A stretch of 64,000 nucleotides of DNA. Origin: an uncultured Nitrososphaerota archaeon. GTDB lineage: Archaea; Thermoproteota; Nitrososphaeria; Nitrososphaerales; CADDZS01. The position numbers were made by a program. Numbering within the stretch: position 1 is the stretch's first letter; each line of letters starts with the position of its first letter. Shown in pieces: positions 18,001-29,523 of the stretch. The stretch is taken from positions 1,344,001 to 1,408,000 of the forward strand of contig CAWCYI010000006.1 of assembly GCA_963799845.1 (NCBI GenBank), read 5' to 3'.

Positions 18001-21000
18001 GAGTTCGCAAAGTCAAATCCGATCAAAAAGCAGATTCTGAAAAGGCAAATCGAAGAGGTGATGCAGAACATCGAACTCCTTTCCGCTGATCTGGAAAAAT
18101 ATGGTCACGGTCTATCTTGGCTCCGGGAGCCCAGCAAGGAAAGAGATGAAAAGGCAGAGCATCTGCCTAAATTAGAAAAGGAAGCAGCTCCTCCTGCGCC
18201 AGCCGCACAGAGTGCAGCCCCAGGTCAGGCGAGACCAGTCCCGACAAGGCCCGTGATTGGAAAACCAGTCGGCGCAACAAGCGCTCCACAAACGAGTCAG
18301 CCAGTAGCACCGCGACCCTCTGTTGGCACCCCGGTTGCGAGACCGAAAATCGGATCGCCCGTCGGAACTCCGAGCGCTCAGCCATCGAGCGGAACCCCTC
18401 AGGCGCAAGGTTCGAACACGTCGCAGACGCCAGCGGCGAAACCGATTATTGGGACTCCAGTGAAGAGGCCGGTAATCGGGACGCCAATTGGCACTCCAAA
18501 GACTCAGAAAAAAGACGAGAATCAGGAAACCAAAAGCGACGAGTCAGCCTGACTTTCCGAGAACATTCTCCTTGTAGTATTTGCACATTTTCTTGACAGG
18601 GCAAATCTGGCACTTTGGCCCAACGGGCCGGCATATAGTCTGACCAAAACTGACAAACAGTTCATTGACGTCGAGCCAGTATTTCCGCTTGTACAACCGT
18701 AGCAGTTCTGCTTCAGTTTCCTCAGGGGTTTTAGTTTGCACTAGACCGATCCTATTCGGGATCCTGTGGACGTGCGTGTCAACAGGAATCGCCGGCTCTC
18801 CAAAACCGTAAACTATCACGCAACCGGCGGTCTTTCTTCCGACGCCGGGCAATTCCATCAGCTCCGGATAACTTTTTGGAACTTTCCCATGAAATCTCTC
18901 GACTATTTGCTTTGACGCTTCCACGATGTACTTCGATTTCTGATTGTAAAATGAAACGGGCATGATCATATTTGCGACTTGGCGCGGATCAGCCTTTGCT
19001 AGCGATCTGGCATCATCATATTTCGCAAATAGCCGGGCCGAAGCTTTCTCGGTCACCGGATCTCTGGTTCGAGCTGAGAGGATGGTCGAAATCAAAATCC
19101 TGAAGGGATCAGAGTTGCTGACTTCCCTTATCTCTCCAAGGGCCGTCGTCGTGTGAACGGCTGAGCGAATCAGCTTCAATACTCTCTCTGCTTTCGTCCG
19201 ATCGGCGTTCATCGGATCGCGCGTCAATTTATCCTCGATCCTCCAAAGACAGTCACAATTCAGTTTTCTTCCTATTTGAAGACACAAAAATTTCTCACAT
19301 GAGCAAGTACGAGGATAAGGATCTTTTTCATGAACCAGCATCTAGGGACCTACATAAGGCCTGAAAACTTTCTCGGAGCGCAGTAATCGAGGCCAACAGT
19401 GGAATACTTTTATCTATTTTATTCTATCGCATTATCCATCGCTGGCCCCAAATTTCGTTGACTCATTTCTTTACTCCCGAGGAAGCAAACAAAGCTATAC
19501 CTGAAATAGTAATCCTTGTTACTCAGGTCGTTGAGCTCAAGAAAAAAATTGACCGCTCTCGTGATTCTGAGAGAAGTTCCGACCTTGATAAGCTCTCAAC
19601 TTTGATGGCGAAGATTGAAGAAAAGGGCGCTGAACTAAAGGATGCGGACGTTGGTTTGATCGATTTTCCAGCGCTTAGGTTTAACGAACCGGTTTATCTT
19701 TGCTGGAAGCTCGGGGAAGACGAGGTTCTTTACTGGCACGGGTCAGAGGGCTTCCGAGGTAGAAAACCGCTAAGGCCAGAAGCGACAAAAATCGTTTGAA
19801 TCGAGCTACGCATAGTAGCAAGATATCAGAAAGTTGGGTTCAGCTCGATTTGAACCTGCGATTGGGAAGTACGAATTCGAAGGCTGGGCTTCTTTGAAGA
19901 ATGCAATCGGAGAATTTTCTGAATCGTATCGTCTATATCCGTCGATCTCCGAACTGCTTTTTTTGTTTGAGTTGGCAGATGTCTTACATTTGCGTCGAGA
20001 AATTAGTAATGTTCAGCTAATTCTTCTTATCGCCGTTCTTCGTTAGCTCCTCATAGAAGGAGATGACAGCTTTTTCCTGTTTCTTCTCGATTGATCCTGG
20101 TCTTTTTGATCTTATCTTGGAGATAGCCTCGTCAGGAGCCAAGCCATACATCTTGCAGAGGTAGGCGGCAAGAACCGTTCCTGTCCTGCCTTTTCCCGCC
20201 GCGCAATTATGAACGATTGCACCATTTGCTAGGTAAGTATGGTTATCTTCAATTTCAAGGTTGTAAACAAGTCCGGAATACATCGATTTCTCAAGCGATA
20301 CAACCGGCATGCAATAGTAATTTGACCATAGAGCAGTATAGTGAGATGTGCTCTTCTCCCTCCACTCGACAATCCAAGCCGGGGATGGCCTTTCAAATCC
20401 GCTGTGCCGTTTGAATTGTCTTATGTACGGATGCCATCCGTTTTCCAGCACTAGATTCCAAACCTGAAAGGCCAGCGTCAAAGAAGTAGAGAAAAACGAC
20501 GAGCTTTCTCTTTTAGTCGAATAATAGGCATCGCCGTCGGTTACACCCTCCAGCACTGCCTTAGAATCGCATCCATGAAGGAACCCCGGCAAGCGTTTTT
20601 CCAATGAATTCGTCCCGAACCAATTTCGGAAATTATATGTCAACGTTCTCGAGTAGACTTTGATCCTTGTGTAGTTCTCGTGCTCGTCGACCTTCGGTTC
20701 AACCCCAAATTGGCCGAAAGCTCGTAGGGCCCGATCAATATCATCATTTTTTCCTAGAGTTAGTTGCAAACCTCTCGACCCGATCGATGAGCCGTCTGCC
20801 GCGTAGAGACCCATCAGCCATGAGACGTCAGCAGAGGCTAAAGGCTCAACCACTTTGTTCGAATTCGGATTGTCTGATTTCCACTCGAATCTGATCTTGC
20901 CTTCTTGTCTAGATTTCTGAGCAACTATCGGCGAGAGAAGAAAATCCCCAGGTACCAAATCCTTTGCCAAAACCCAGATTGGTTGTGTCTTATCCCAATT

Positions 21001-27000: not shown

Positions 27001-29523
27001 CATGAAGCATCACGGCTACCAGATGGCGAGTTTCGAGGTTCTTCGTAGGTACTTGCAAACTCTCACAAATGAGCAGATCAGTTATGGAATGAAGTACTTC
27101 CTCTCCGAAGACGATATCTCAAGTATAGTGAATCGCGAGCACCCTCGGTTCAGCCGGCTGAGATTTTTGAATCCGGCGATGATGGTTCGGATTGCAAAGG
27201 AGTCTAAGCTGAGCTTCCGGCCTGAAACACACAGCGGATTCAAGTGAGGAGCTGATAGCGCACAACATGAACTATCCGGAAAAACCAAGTGGTTTCGTCG
27301 AGTGGAAGAGCCAGTTTTTGTCAAAACTTCAGGAAGCCTTCAGGTTCTAATTTCTCCAATCCCGTGGACAGATTGCAGAGATCGTTCTGAGTTACCTACG
27401 ACCGGATCAAATGTATCATATCGGTGCGCGTTAGTGATTTTTCCCAAAGATGGAAAATCATCATTTCGACTTACGCCAAATTTGCTTACATTGGGGGGAT
27501 TTCGTCTGGTATGTTCATCGAGTTTAACGTTTGGCAACTGGAGCAGGAAAATGACCTTGGCAGCAAAAGAAGAGTTCACAAAAGAAGTCAGGTATGAGAT
27601 ATATTCGTGTGCGTTCTGCGAGTTCGTTCAAAATTCAATGGGAACTGAACGCCTCGAAGCGATTGACGAGAAAAAGTATCTGTTCCATTTGAAACATGTT
27701 CATAACCTTGAACGTTAATCGGCAGTAGTCCAAGACTTATTGCGAGATTAGAATATCTGTCGCGGGAATTGCCTTAGTCGTTCCAGCAGTAGAATGCGCA
27801 ATTTTCATTGACAAAGGCAGGGGACTTGCGATATGCTTACTCTTGCACAGCGTCCTCAAACCAGAGCTCGTTTGAACCCAGGTCGTCCTCGTCATCTTCT
27901 TCATTTTCCTTGATACTTTTTATCTCAATCACTCTCAAAGGCTTCTTATCTTCTTGAGGGTGCTTCACTTCGACTTTGGGTACTTCAACCTCCACCTTCT
28001 GCCTAATTTCCTCTTCGGGGGCTTCGACTGCTGGCGACTTAATTTCTTTGATCACTTCAGGTTCAATCGGCGGCGCCTCTACTTTTGGGGCTTCGACCGG
28101 TAGCGGACGAGCAACTTCCTTTACTGGTTCAAGTCGTTTTTCCTCTATGCCAGATTGTTGGACTAGAACAACGGGTTTGGGCTCCTCCTTTGTGATCGGG
28201 CTGGTCTCGATTTCCATTTCGTCAAGTTCGACAGATCGAATTACTTTTTCGACCTCTTCGAGCGCTCTAACTTCGACTGATTTCGAAATCTTCTTCTCAG
28301 CTGGAGATTCCAATCTTTTTACTTCGATTCGAAGTTCTGAAAGCATCAGTGTCAAGGACCTTGTATCCTGGCTGTATACTTCTTCAGCCAGCATGAATTT
28401 CTTTTTCCGAAATGATTCAACTAGGCCCGCAGCCATTCCATGAAGAAAATAATTCCCAACCGCCTTTCCTGAAAATATTGGAGGATCGATAACTACTATC
28501 CGTTCAAAAGTCGTTTCAGATTCCCAGGTAAAAGATCCCCAACCCGCTGCCTTGAGATATCCTCTGACATTCTCCTGGATTGCATCTTCGGAAAAGCCGG
28601 GCGACATTTTGGTTCGCACCTGCTTCACGACATCCAGCGCATAATTGCGCCCCACGTCTCGCAAGGCAACTTTCGATTCCTCAGAGTTCAGGCGTTCTTG
28701 GATGAGAAAAGTAATGTTCGAGTCGATTGATACGACTCTATTTGTTAGCAATATTGTTTGCGGGAAAAGAAACCCGTCAAACATTCTGTTTTTCAGGCAG
28801 ATCGCATTAGCGTTTCTGACCTGTTTCATCCGTCTTAGTTCAATGATGAGGTCGTCAGGGGTTACACTAACTTCGCCTAGATCGCAAGATATGCAGAGAG
28901 TGAATTCTCTGTTTTTCTCATCGACATAACCCGTCTGCGAGACTATCCTTGCACCACGTTTTAGCAGAGTGTTCAATATCTGAACTTGGATTCCCCGATC
29001 TTCTCGACCATATACCAGGAACGCGTAACTTCTAGGAGTGCCGATTGCTAAATTGCCGATATTATTCGGATAATATTCAACCGAGGGGAGCCGCGGTTTT
29101 CCGAGATGGAAGCTCATCCGGCCTTTCCTACGAGATTGAATGGAATAAGACGCAATTATAGGATTATGGACTTCAGATCTAGATCCTAGCCAACCCCCCA
29201 GTTTCTTCGAGTCGATCTGTTCTGAGCTATTTTGAATTTTGTAAACTCTAGCATCTTACAAACCACCTGGAGGAAGAAATCAAAGGAACCCCACAAAATC
29301 AATTTCGTTTATTCATCACCATTTGATTTGATCGTAGCTTATATCGTGGTGTCTTGGAAGAGTCAATAATTCTGCCTTGAAAAGGGAAATAATTCAGCAC
29401 CTTTCTACCGATCCGAATAGTGCTCGGGCCAGCGAGTTTGTACTGCCCACAAATCCGGAGCTCTTCATGAAAAGAGGGCATTATTCGATTTGAATCTGGA
29501 TTTTCTCGACTATGTTTAATTGA

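Follow-up and report, generated by a model that had tools for sequence, protein, structure and literature searches.

Two predicted class-1 inteins in catalytic motifs of a cysteine phosphatase and a geranylgeranyl reductase homologue of a Nitrososphaerales archaeon

Introduction

In the stretch of DNA analysed here (64,000 nucleotides from the genome of a Nitrososphaerales archaeon, hereafter the window), two neighbouring genes are each interrupted within a catalytic motif by a long insert. What are these inserts, how could the interrupted genes still give rise to enzymes, and have the inserts arrived recently or been with their hosts for long? The genome-wide survey's note had described both as inteins that had recently invaded two hosts not previously known to carry them. 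The source organism is a soil archaeon. We propose that both inserts are very probably genuine, selfish class-1 LAGLIDADG inteins lodged in two invariant catalytic motifs, with predicted splicing and endonuclease activities, in an old association with their hosts that the homing cycle keeps dynamic.

Results

An intein between the His and the nucleophile Cys of a phosphatase

The phosphatase precursor gene (20017..21600, reverse strand), recognised from its open reading frame and Pfam matches, encodes 527 amino acids in which a DSP/PTP-type cysteine phosphatase is combined with an intein. The N-extein (residues 1-106; 21283..21600, reverse strand), delimited by the reading frame and by alignment of alleles, ends in ...KTDVH. 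The intein (residues 107-465, 359 amino acids; 20206..21282, reverse strand) was identified from its motifs, an AF2 model and Foldseek, and the C-extein (residues 466-527 and the stop codon; 20017..20205, reverse strand) starts at the nucleophile Cys in the P-loop CAAGKGRTG. With a slash marking each junction, the boundaries read ...KTDVH/CFIPSTVV and ...AIVHN/CAAGKGRTG. The insert has Cys1 (Cys107), block B (TPEH), block F (VYNLEIEDNHTY), a C-terminal IVHN followed by the +1 Cys, and two LAGLIDADG motifs (WLMGLYAADGS and VLEGVTDGDAY) with a catalytic acidic residue in each. The precursor is matched by Pfam Intein_splicing (1.8e-10) and by NCBIfam TIGR01443 intein_Cterm (1.1e-7; 31.8 bits, cut-off 15.6), and the intein by Pfam LAGLIDADG_3 with 1e-4 and 22.9 bits, barely above the cut-off of 22.5.

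Three intein-free alleles (P0138-P0140), whose N-exteins are 89-75% identical, run unbroken as KTDVHCAAGKGRTG. In the survey's note the intein cuts the HCX5R loop between its His and the catalytic Cys, and alignment of the 89%-identical intein-free allele with DUSP23 and other DSPs bears this out; the His is residue 106. The HCX5R(S/T) P-loop, contiguous in intein-free alleles, is completed here only upon conceptual splicing (VH + CAAGKGRT).

The host itself, judged from its sequence, is a DSP/PTP-type cysteine phosphatase. Pfam PTP-SAK (1.8e-14; 54.5 bits, cut-off 27) and DSPc (2.7e-10; 40.6 bits, cut-off 33.5) match the precursor. The intein-free proxy P0138 matches, among PDB entries, the DSP 25xa (3.9e-16), DUSP23 (3.9e-15) and SsoPTP (5e-12), and its P-loop aligns with VHCALGFGRTG of DUSP23 and with that of 25xa. 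The alignment with atypical DSPs (DUSP23, SsoPTP, PTPMT1) is full-length, and the motif VHCxxGxGRTG is common to all. At the position that aligns with the general-acid Asp before the P-loop, the protein has Asn (VPMVNHAIPT) instead of the Asp of DUSP23 and 25xa; some orthologues (L005, L007) have Asp there. A search of the window's own genome with the phosphatase as query found the intein-bearing copy as the sole one.

The AF2 model of the phosphatase precursor (pLDDT 79.2, pTM 0.72) was compared with solved structures by Foldseek. The matches, which range from about 5e-19 to 4e-12, include the TliVMA intein (7qsu, 4.8e-19), PI-SceI (1vde, 1.4e-17), PhoVMA, PI-TkoII and PI-PfuI (1dq3). The phosphatase intein, the one of the two that was folded, is thus predicted to have a HINT fold like that of solved inteins that bear a homing endonuclease. 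The pLDDT falls below 50 at residues 467-472, the P-loop past the +1 Cys, so that the model gives no firm picture of the precursor active site.

A second intein in the YxWxFP motif of a geranylgeranyl reductase homologue

The reductase precursor gene (24723..27350, forward strand) encodes 875 amino acids once two assembly indels are corrected. Its N-extein (residues 1-231; 24723..25415, forward strand), supported by the reading frame, motifs and alignment with the structure 3atq, ends in ...APGGY; the intein (residues 232-623, 392 amino acids; 25416..26591, forward strand) was recognised by Pfam and motifs; and the C-extein (26592..27350, forward strand), defined on the corrected reading frame and the 3atq alignment, starts with CWTFPKGKSKVNIGLG, part of the motif YxWxFP...GxG. 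The junctions are APGGY/CLAPDTPV and FSVHN/CWTFPKG. Cys1 (Cys232), block B (TSDH), the C-terminal SVHN, the +1 Cys and two LAGLIDADG motifs (LCGWYLSEGC and LRGMYLGDGS), each with its catalytic acidic residue, are present. Pfam matches are to LAGLIDADG_3 (6.4e-12, 46 bits) and GGR_cat (2.1e-7). For the two genes of the window, NCBIfam gives partial matches to models of intein-containing Tes, IF-2, RpoA'', GyrA and DnaB, equivalent to the Swiss-Prot matches that the note had listed. Intein-free alleles read GGY[ACS]WTFPKG with no break; the insertion at GGY/CWTFPKG that the note had described stands.

An intein-free proxy (P0064, exteins 94% identical) matches the geranylgeranyl reductase of S. 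acidocaldarius (SaGGR; 3atq) over its full length with an E value of 7.4e-57. The conceptually spliced motif GGY+CWTFPKGKSKVNIGLG aligns with GGYWWYFPKGKNKVNVGLG of 3atq; YxWxFP...GxG is what we take to be the catalytic-domain motif of the geranylgeranyl reductase family. The N-extein contains the FAD-binding IIAGGGMAG (GxGxxG) and the CGD motif GWTCGDAVSK. From these sequence features the host is a homologue of the Sulfolobus-type geranylgeranyl reductase, and no other gene of the window's genome matches NF041080 (digeranylgeranylglycerophospholipid reductase equivalog) better. It stays below the cut-off of that model (580 bits, against 289.6 for P0064 and 259.4 for the intein-bearing P0019).

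We also considered whether the +1 Cys is a catalytic or otherwise needed residue of the reductase. This was rejected, since the position is A, S, C, L, G or K in intein-free alleles. Among 41 alleles of the reductase intein, Cys1, the Thr and His of block B and the terminal His-Asn are invariant (41/41), while the acidic residue is kept in 31 alleles in the first LAGLIDADG motif and in 38 in the second. Invariant splicing residues beside less well kept endonuclease residues point to selection on splicing.

The broken reductase frame is an assembly artefact

In the uncorrected window the reductase appears as two open reading frames on the forward strand, 24723..26705 (660 amino acids) and 26693..27247 (184 amino acids). 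Short-read contigs, which are independent by method, not by organism, and may share their sample with the assembly, correct the frame at two places. Within 26641..26650 (forward strand) the window has a run of five A where contigs X1, X2 and X4 have one more A behind 26645, and at 27211 (forward strand) it has one base too many compared with X1 and X2. The corrected protein of 875 amino acids ends in ...AFRF, as in relatives. The note had attributed the break to a single, probable sequencing indel; the cause was right, but there are two frameshifts instead of one.

Genome searches confirmed the part of the note that has both hosts encoded near each other in genomes of the family. Between the two genes in the window lie a transposase gene (21798..22430, forward strand; an open reading frame with HTH and a weak integrase-core match in Pfam) and a multicopy IS element (22658..23764, forward strand) with 31-nt terminal inverted repeats and a DDE transposase. 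The IS contig in X1 has a depth of about 58, compared with about 6 in its flanks. In the window the frame of the DDE transposase appears to be broken by two more assembly indels, one at 23225 and one at 23709, and because short reads correct these two breaks as well as those of the reductase, the assembly has a general indel problem.

Proposed maturation of the two enzymes

By sequence both inserts are canonical inteins, with Cys1, TxxH, two LAGLIDADG motifs, His-Asn and a +1 Cys, and both are predicted to splice. Each precursor would be translated whole, as 527 amino acids for the phosphatase and 875 for the reductase. The intein would then excise itself by an N-S acyl shift at Cys1, transesterification onto the +1 Cys, Asn cyclisation and finally an S-N shift. 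Ligation would yield a phosphatase of 168 amino acids and a reductase of 483, in which the ...VHCAAGKGRTG loop and the GGYCWTFPKG...GLG motif, respectively, are intact. Since the +1 Cys that splicing would use in the phosphatase is the enzyme's own nucleophile, no activity is expected of the precursor. For the reductase, it is the intein alone that would require the +1 Cys.

Distribution and age of the inteins

The phosphatase intein is present in 2, and the reductase intein in 10, of 401 species-representative genomes from the order. Two alleles reported in the note were reproduced, the phosphatase intein in G072 (54% identity, open reading frame of 529 amino acids) and the reductase intein in G108 (76% identity, unbroken frame of 898 amino acids); each of these genomes carries that one intein alone. 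The note's statement that the intein alleles are rare holds for the species-representative genomes, but not for the public sets. Reductase proteins with an intein at the identical site form at least 45 clusters in public protein collections. The reductase intein is known from two of the order's families and from records labelled Conexivisphaerales. In cysteine phosphatases, about 20-26 clusters at 50% identity have an intein at the H/C site, actinophage-type phosphatases among them; of the best 150 representatives at that identity, 26 show the intein C-terminal junction HN/CxxGxxR.

The inteins diverge largely in step with their hosts. For the phosphatase, extein and intein identities to G000, the window's genome, are 90.5/90.5, 68.3/64.6, 57.8/59.6, 56.0/59.9 and 51.2/54.6%. 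Between carriers of the reductase intein they are, for example, 89.4/86.2 and 75.2/75.5%, and over 820 pairs the two identities have a Spearman correlation of 0.65. In two pairs, P0021 with P0022 (inteins 82.9%, exteins 72.5%) and G000 with P0027 (inteins 62.2%, exteins 85.5%), the identities part company, which hints at horizontal movement or replacement.

On the extein trees, carriers and intein-free alleles interleave. The reductase tree (FastTree, 115 rows) cannot be explained with fewer than 12 state changes, of which starred branches force 9, and in one clade all 27 clusters bear the intein. The rows of this tree were chosen by similarity to an intein-bearing query, so that the share of carriers is not a population frequency. 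The phosphatase tree (19 rows) requires 6 state changes, 3 of them forced. Both trees are unrooted, and gains look the same as losses. Taken together, the data look like an old association of intein and host with repeated loss and gain in a homing cycle. We propose that the inteins co-diverge with their hosts, with precise loss in many lineages and occasional re-invasion or replacement, and that certain alleles undergo decay of the endonuclease, with the splicing residues remaining invariant.

Discussion

Weighing the alternatives

The note had taken the rare and patchy alleles as a sign that both inteins invaded the lineage of G000 recently and horizontally. Besides the few species-representative carriers, such a reading can draw on the absence of an intein from the nearest relatives (P0064 for the reductase exteins; P0138, 88.7% identical, for the phosphatase), on the two unlike inteins within the shallow reductase clade of G000 (the pair with P0027) and on the catalytic acidic residues kept in both homing endonucleases. 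Yet no carrier has an intein markedly closer to that of G000 than its exteins are (at the closest, exteins and inteins are 90.5 and 90.5% identical for the phosphatase, 89.4 and 86.2% for the reductase), the phosphatase intein follows its exteins down to 51% identity, and the reductase intein is fixed throughout the 27-cluster clade and spread over both families and the Conexivisphaerales-labelled records. We therefore consider a recent invasion unlikely and depart from the note on this point. That the interrupted genes are dead, whether as pseudogenes or because the inserts do not splice or are fused free-standing endonucleases, is highly improbable. The doubly broken reductase frame and the nearby IS elements might suggest it, but short reads mend those breaks and the two in the IS transposase, the phosphatase frame is open, and every splicing residue is present in both inteins. 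Moreover, the search of the genome found no phosphatase copy besides the intein-bearing one, and the intein-bearing reductase is the genome's best SaGGR-type homologue.

It is also improbable, a little more so than a recent invasion, that domestication has turned the inteins into conditional switches. In that case splicing would be gated, for example by a disulfide that joins Cys1 and the +1 Cys when conditions are oxidising, the release of phosphatase activity and of lipid saturation would be purely post-translational, and the adjacency of the genes would reflect joint control. Redox-trapped inteins are known, both inteins here have Cys1 and a +1 Cys at their junctions, and the +1 Cys of the phosphatase is the nucleophile. 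The fixation of the reductase intein in a whole clade fits as well, as do its perfect splicing residues beside endonuclease motifs that have decayed in 10 of the 41 alleles. Against this, most close relatives have neither intein, G072 and G108 each have only one of the two, and kept splicing residues are equally expected where the intein is purely selfish and its host gene is needed.

Relation to known inteins and host enzymes

As selfish class-1 LAGLIDADG inteins, both inserts share the block anatomy of PI-SceI in VMA1, TliVMA, PhoVMA, PI-PfuI and PI-TkoII. The predicted fold of the phosphatase intein resembles theirs (Foldseek E values of 4.8e-19 to 4e-12), although its sequence identity to the solved inteins is only 12-15%. 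Insertion in an invariant active-site motif and patchy alleles are common to the known inteins and to both described here. The hosts differ: those of the known inteins are ATPases, polymerases and ribonucleotide reductase, while here they are a cysteine phosphatase and a flavoenzyme of the geranylgeranyl reductase family. Literature text searches returned no report of an intein in either, in agreement with the note, and it appears that two undescribed host proteins are added to a well-known kind of selfish element.

For the reductase, SaGGR (3atq, 4opc and other PDB entries) aligns in full with the intein-free proxy and shares the motif GGYxWxFPKGxxKxNxGLG. Inteins in archaeal membrane-lipid enzymes have a curated precedent in the tetraether lipid synthase Tes (NCBIfam NF045703, rSAM_Tes_intein), a model that the reductase intein matches partially (49 bits, residues 389-553); the two cases share neither host enzyme nor insertion site nor intein. 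A literature text search found no paper linking inteins and Tes.

For the phosphatase, a close parallel is the Walker A motif, the phosphate-binding loop of ATPases, whose intein insertions were surveyed by Novikova et al. (2016; PMC4760082). The word "phosphatase" is absent from the main text of that survey, the part that was searched, its host tables being in supplementary file 1. Like the Walker A insertions, the phosphatase intein sits in a phosphate-binding P-loop, right before a residue needed for splicing, but the HCX5R loop is unrelated to Walker A and its +1 residue is a covalent catalytic nucleophile. The window's own genome also has two classical Walker A inteins, with the junctions SGGGK/S...HN/SW and AGDPG/C...HN/SGKST.

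An intein splits the P-loop of a cysteine phosphatase

The PTP gene (20017..21600, minus strand) encodes a precursor of 527 amino acids, of which residues 1-106 and 466-527 match the cysteine-phosphatase families PTP-SAK (1.8e-14) and DSPc (2.7e-10) in Pfam. Residues 107-465 (nt 20206..21282) match Intein_splicing (1.8e-10, Pfam), the NCBIfam model TIGR01443 intein_Cterm (1.1e-7) and, barely above the cut-off, LAGLIDADG_3 (1e-4, Pfam). The junctions read ...KTDVH/CFIPSTVV and ...AIVHN/CAAGKGRTG (the slash marks the junction), and the insert has the full set of class-1 blocks: Cys1, TPEH (TxxH), two LAGLIDADG motifs with acidic residues, His-Asn, and a +1 Cys as the first residue of the C-extein. 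An AlphaFold2 model of the precursor, made from an 11-row alignment (A1), had a pLDDT of 79.2 and a pTM of 0.72. Its top matches in the PDB were endonuclease-bearing inteins, namely TliVMA (7qsu, E 4.8e-19, TM 0.72 on the target), followed by PI-SceI, PhoVMA, PI-TkoII and PI-PfuI.

An intein-free allele of the phosphatase, the public protein P0138 (168 aa, exteins 88.7% identical), contains the uninterrupted sequence KTDVHCAAGKGRTGT. Compared with known structures, P0138 matched the dual-specificity-family phosphatase 25xa (3.9e-16), DUSP23 (3.9e-15), SsoPTP (5e-12) and PTPMT1 (2.9e-11), and its HC...GRTG segment aligned on the P-loops of all four. Thus, the intein parts the histidine from the nucleophilic cysteine, and that cysteine is the +1 residue of the intein. 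In HCX5R phosphatases the Cys of the loop is the nucleophile, and we take the +1 Cys to be that residue. A search of the window's own genome (G000) with the PTP query found no second copy of this type of phosphatase.

In the N-extein (21283..21600, minus strand), the segment VPMVNHAIPT of G000 has an Asn where, by alignment, DUSP23 and 25xa have the Asp that acts as general acid. Most family orthologues in the alignment also have Asn at this position, and two have Asp. With PTPMT1 among the structural relatives, a lipid reductase encoded nearby and Asn at the general-acid position, the substrate may not be a protein; lipid phosphates and phosphoanhydrides are candidates.

A second intein interrupts a geranylgeranyl-reductase homologue

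The GGR gene, which encodes a flavoprotein of the geranylgeranyl-reductase family, was assembled as two open reading frames on the plus strand (24723..26705 and 26693..27247). Its 392-aa insert (APGGY/CLAPDTPV ... FSVHN/CWTFPKG) matched LAGLIDADG_3 at 6.4e-12 (Pfam) and contains all class-1 blocks, with TSDH as its TxxH motif, acidic residues in both LAGLIDADG motifs, and Cys1, His-Asn and the +1 Cys in place. The intein-free allele P0064 (483 aa, exteins 94% identical) aligned end to end with the geranylgeranyl reductase of Sulfolobus acidocaldarius (3atq, E 7.4e-57, residues 3-477 versus 4-445), with GGYAWTFPKGKNKVNIGLG opposite GGYWWYFPKGKNKVNVGLG. On the NCBIfam equivalog model of DGGGPL reductase (NF041080), P0064 scored 289.6 bits, under the cut-off of 580 bits. 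The interrupted GGR gene is by far the best match to this model in G000, the other GGR-like open reading frames reaching only about 30-41 bits. Most lipid saturation in these archaea is probably the work of this host enzyme.

Intein-free GGR alleles carry A, C, S, L, G or K directly behind the insertion point, so the +1 Cys is required by the intein and not by the enzyme. The unpublished genome G102 contributes only one intein-free GGR allele with Cys at this position and one intein-free neighbouring phosphatase.

The frameshifts of the GGR gene are assembly errors

The window covers positions 1344001-1408000 of contig C6 in the G000 assembly, which comprises 4.6 Mb in 9 contigs with a completeness of 86.7%. 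Compared with its relatives, the GGR frame breaks after GLGVQKK at a run of five A and again near the C-terminus. Soil-metagenome runs contain DNA near-identical to the window, and the listing of such runs showed none of RNA. Contigs from four public runs on soil (X1-X4), all belonging to a single study, were compared with window positions 20000-27400. Contigs of X1, X2 and X4 have an extra A behind 26645, and those of X1 and X2 have one base fewer at 27211. With both corrections the gene runs from 24723 to 27350 and encodes 875 aa, ending in ...AFRF as in relatives. The GGR frameshifts are therefore assembly errors. The genome-wide survey's note had suspected a sequencing indel after the intein; the short-read contigs confirm this and place it at 26645, and the frame has not one break, as the note had it, but two.

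Transposase-adapter remnants on loose contig ends indicate that the data of these runs are short-read. Since the runs may share a sample with the assembly, the check is independent in method and not in organism. One short-read contig runs through the entire PTP intein and both of its junctions; the GGR junctions are covered by two more. No contig joining across either intein was seen in the soil runs; contigs drop rare variants, so this does not address intein-free alleles in the population. In the transposase gene of an IS element, single-base differences at 23225 and 23709 occurred in all four runs. Against the short-read contigs there are thus four single-base indel errors (23225, 23709, 26645 and 27211) in 7.4 kb of the window. 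The assembly is therefore indel-rich, and split genes elsewhere in G000 should not be taken for pseudogenes without a check.

Distribution and linkage of the two inteins

The comparison took in 401 genomes of the order, counting G000. Some part of the PTP precursor was matched in 381 of them, and the extein matches were open reading frames of 160-230 aa in nearly all families. An intein-bearing PTP gene was found only in G000 and G072 (54% identity, open frame of 529 aa) among the best 150 of 936 matches, where any further carrier would rank at the top. The GGR intein alone as a query matched 10 of the 401 genomes: the window's own family contributed G000 and G108, and another family, f9, contributed 8 of its 97 genomes (55-59% identity). 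The GGR gene itself is present in 12 of the 13 genomes of the window's family and is intein-free or contig-cut in 10 of these.

The gene order in G072 is GGR (minus strand), a TrmB-like gene, the intein-bearing PTP gene (plus strand), DUF2203 and Nth. G000 has the same flank, with Nth at 18544..19341 and DUF2203 at 19458..19799, and two IS elements lie between its PTP and GGR genes, one of which has 31-nt inverted repeats and about ten times the contig depth of its flanks. The TrmB-like regulator was considered as a part of the system and rejected, as it occurs only in the G072 locus and not in G000, G034, G006 or G102. Of the two inteins, G072 has that of PTP alone and G108 that of GGR alone; the phosphatase adjacent to the GGR gene of G108 is a second, intein-free paralogue type. 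Thus, the two inteins are not a unit.

When the GGR protein was used to search 5.8 billion proteins, the 120 matches listed comprised the window's own protein, 45 intein-bearing clusters and 74 intein-free ones. Complete intein-bearing clusters are 866-889 aa long, and in all listed intein-bearing proteins long enough to include a junction the insertion site is the same, GY/C...HN/CW[TV]FPKG. The organisms named belong to Nitrososphaerales and Conexivisphaerales, and the proteins are filed, among other names, as "LAGLIDADG family homing endonuclease", "FAD-dependent monooxygenase" or "hypothetical protein". With the PTP query, 10 of the 17 matches were phosphatases with an intein at the H/C site (91% to 33% identity). 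The inteins are thus rare among the genomes of the order, as the survey had stated, but not in the larger protein collections.

A profile search of 1.84 billion representatives found the HN/CxxGxxR junction in 26 of the best 150 proteins, 20 of which have His immediately before Cys1. The exteins of one intein-bearing phosphatase, P0007, are 39-58% identical to dual-specificity phosphatases of Mycobacterium, Gordonia and Rhodococcus phages. Among 50,697 phage records, 43 matched P0007, none over at least 80% of the query, and no intein form was found. Searching contigs of 185,579 species with alignment A1, by exact patterns that likely miss some cases, gave three loci: a full allele in a Nitrososphaerales MAG record (L039), a frameshifted remnant of an intein-bearing actinophage-type dual-specificity phosphatase on a Dactylosporangium sp. 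chromosome (L040, about 3000..3500; ...NGVATHN/CQAGINRSS), and an unrelated Methanocaldococcus intein (L041). In metagenome contigs the PTP precursor matched seven loci, all by the C-terminus of the intein only and in unrelated hosts. With intein-bearing phosphatases of both archaeal and bacterial-virus type, H/C is a recurrent intein site of cysteine phosphatases.

Among other public proteins, P0009 (670 aa) has a PTP-type intein in a different host protein (...LCY/C...VHN/CTFGANSPG), and P0012 (548 aa) is an ATP-grasp enzyme fused with an intein-free phosphatase of the PTP family.

Age of the intein-host association

The inteins had been described as recent invasions. Between carriers, intein identity follows extein identity, which does not fit that description. 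Extein and intein identities to G000 were 90.5/90.5 (P0001), 68.3/64.6, 57.8/59.6, 56.0/59.9, 51.2/54.6 and 38.4/47.3% for PTP, and 89.4/86.2 (P0019) and 75.2/75.5% (P0022) for GGR. Over 820 pairs of GGR proteins the two identities were correlated (Spearman 0.65), with the inteins usually more diverged.

On the extein trees, carriers interleave with non-carriers. The GGR tree (115 rows, FastTree) needs at least 12 changes of state, 9 of them forced by well-supported branches, compared with a shuffled mean of 34; a clade of 27 rows is wholly intein-bearing, and 11 of the 62 rows in the clade of G000 have the intein. The PTP tree (19 rows, IQ-TREE) has 6 changes, 3 of them forced, and its clustering is not beyond chance. 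Coming from unrooted trees whose rows were picked by similarity to an intein-bearing query, these numbers do not apportion gains and losses, and the carrier frequencies are not those of populations. Two comparisons suggest that inteins moved horizontally or were replaced: between P0021 and P0022 the inteins are 82.9% identical and the exteins only 72.5%, and between G000 and P0027 the GGR exteins are 85.5% identical and the inteins only 62.2%.

The splicing residues are unchanged in 41 of 41 GGR inteins, and the catalytic acidic residue is kept in 31 of the 41 in LAGLIDADG motif 1 and in 38 in motif 2. Fixed splicing residues with eroding endonuclease residues are the classical signature of a homing cycle. 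Both acidic residues are retained in each of the two endonuclease domains of G000. From the co-divergence, the interleaved carriers and the homing-cycle signature, we read the association of inteins and hosts as probably an old one, in which inteins have been precisely lost many times and have in some cases re-invaded, and not as a recent arrival.

New hosts for a known kind of element

In the main text of the 2016 survey of intein hosts, inteins are catalogued chiefly in proteins of replication, repair and nucleotide metabolism (PMC4760082); the word "phosphatase" is absent from that text, and the host tables are in its supplementary file 1, outside the search. A full-text literature search found no intein described for tyrosine phosphatases, dual-specificity phosphatases or geranylgeranyl reductases, in agreement with the earlier claim that neither host class had been described. 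Judged by titles and abstracts, none of the work on inteins, phosphatases and homing endonucleases (PMC3706429 among it) concerned such a host, and searches on inteins with Thaumarchaeota, Nitrososphaera or tetraether lipid synthase returned nothing relevant. An NCBIfam model of intein-containing Tes is a precedent for an intein in an archaeal lipid enzyme, as in the GGR gene.

The PTP and GGR intein sequences have long been present in public databases under automatic names, and labels such as homing endonuclease or hypothetical protein conceal a lipid-biosynthesis gene. The element itself is of a well-known kind; new are its insertion sites and its hosts, with a solid anatomy and predicted splicing: two well-populated sites in host classes beyond the usual catalogue. 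At the H/C site, which recurs in many divergent phosphatases, phage-type ones included, the nucleophile of the enzyme would double as the nucleophile of splicing. The two inteins offer natural test cases for conditional protein splicing, and new pairs of intein and homing endonuclease usable in protein engineering.

Related inteins hit functional cysteines of several kinds: the nucleophile of PTP, the tandem cysteines that are Fe-S ligands in NuoB of other genomes of the order, and zinc-knuckle cysteines; the YxWxFP site of GGR is also hit. The boldest reading, which we consider improbable, is that the inteins of this family are specialised for functional cysteines and spread across domains of life, and that the Cys1/+1-Cys pairs of G000 redox-gate splicing, so that the main lipid saturase and, encoded beside it, a phosphatase acting in signalling or on lipids would be kept inactive until conditions allow. 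If so, a post-translational switch would have been made from a selfish element.

Other inteins in this genome and order

Further related inteins occur in non-replicative hosts. In G000 (C6:672363-673931, minus strand; L001 863..2431), a 522-aa protein has a C-terminal C2H2 zinc finger with a LAGLIDADG intein of 374 aa between its two zinc-binding cysteines (FECPH/C...VHN/CGRRFPTDIQLSMHTKLH); this intein and that of PTP are 31% identical. In G025 (contig C14; L031 1381..3042, plus strand), a related intein splits the tandem Fe-S cysteines of NuoB (Pfam Oxidored_q6, 5.6e-24; HLETAC/C...VVHN/CSVEVGAAAG); the NuoB intein is likewise found in L012, L013 and L014, all of these genomes belonging to family f9, and G025 has an intein-bearing GGR gene at 8067..10718, about 5 kb away. 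Of the hosts at L009 (1339..3453, plus strand; G206:C44) and L011 (1309..3354, minus strand; G167:C7), one is a zinc-ribbon protein with a split CPS/C knuckle, and the other has an N-terminus that by eye resembles the E1 subunit of a thiamine-dependent 2-oxoacid dehydrogenase.

On contig C4 of G000, a family-B DNA polymerase gene (564726-567296, minus strand; L029 1227..3797) has a LAGLIDADG intein (...ILVC/CLAKEST), and its open reading frame ends within the intein region, probably through a further assembly indel. The same contig holds two adjacent large genes of P-loop ATPase-like proteins (L002, 2022262-2025546, and L030, 2026199-2029387, both minus strand), each with an intein in Walker A: one with an endonuclease (SGGGK/S...VHN/SW) and one without (AGDPG/C...IVHN/SGKST). 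Neighbouring gene pairs, namely PTP with GGR and the Walker A pair, thus hold four of the six inteins found in G000.
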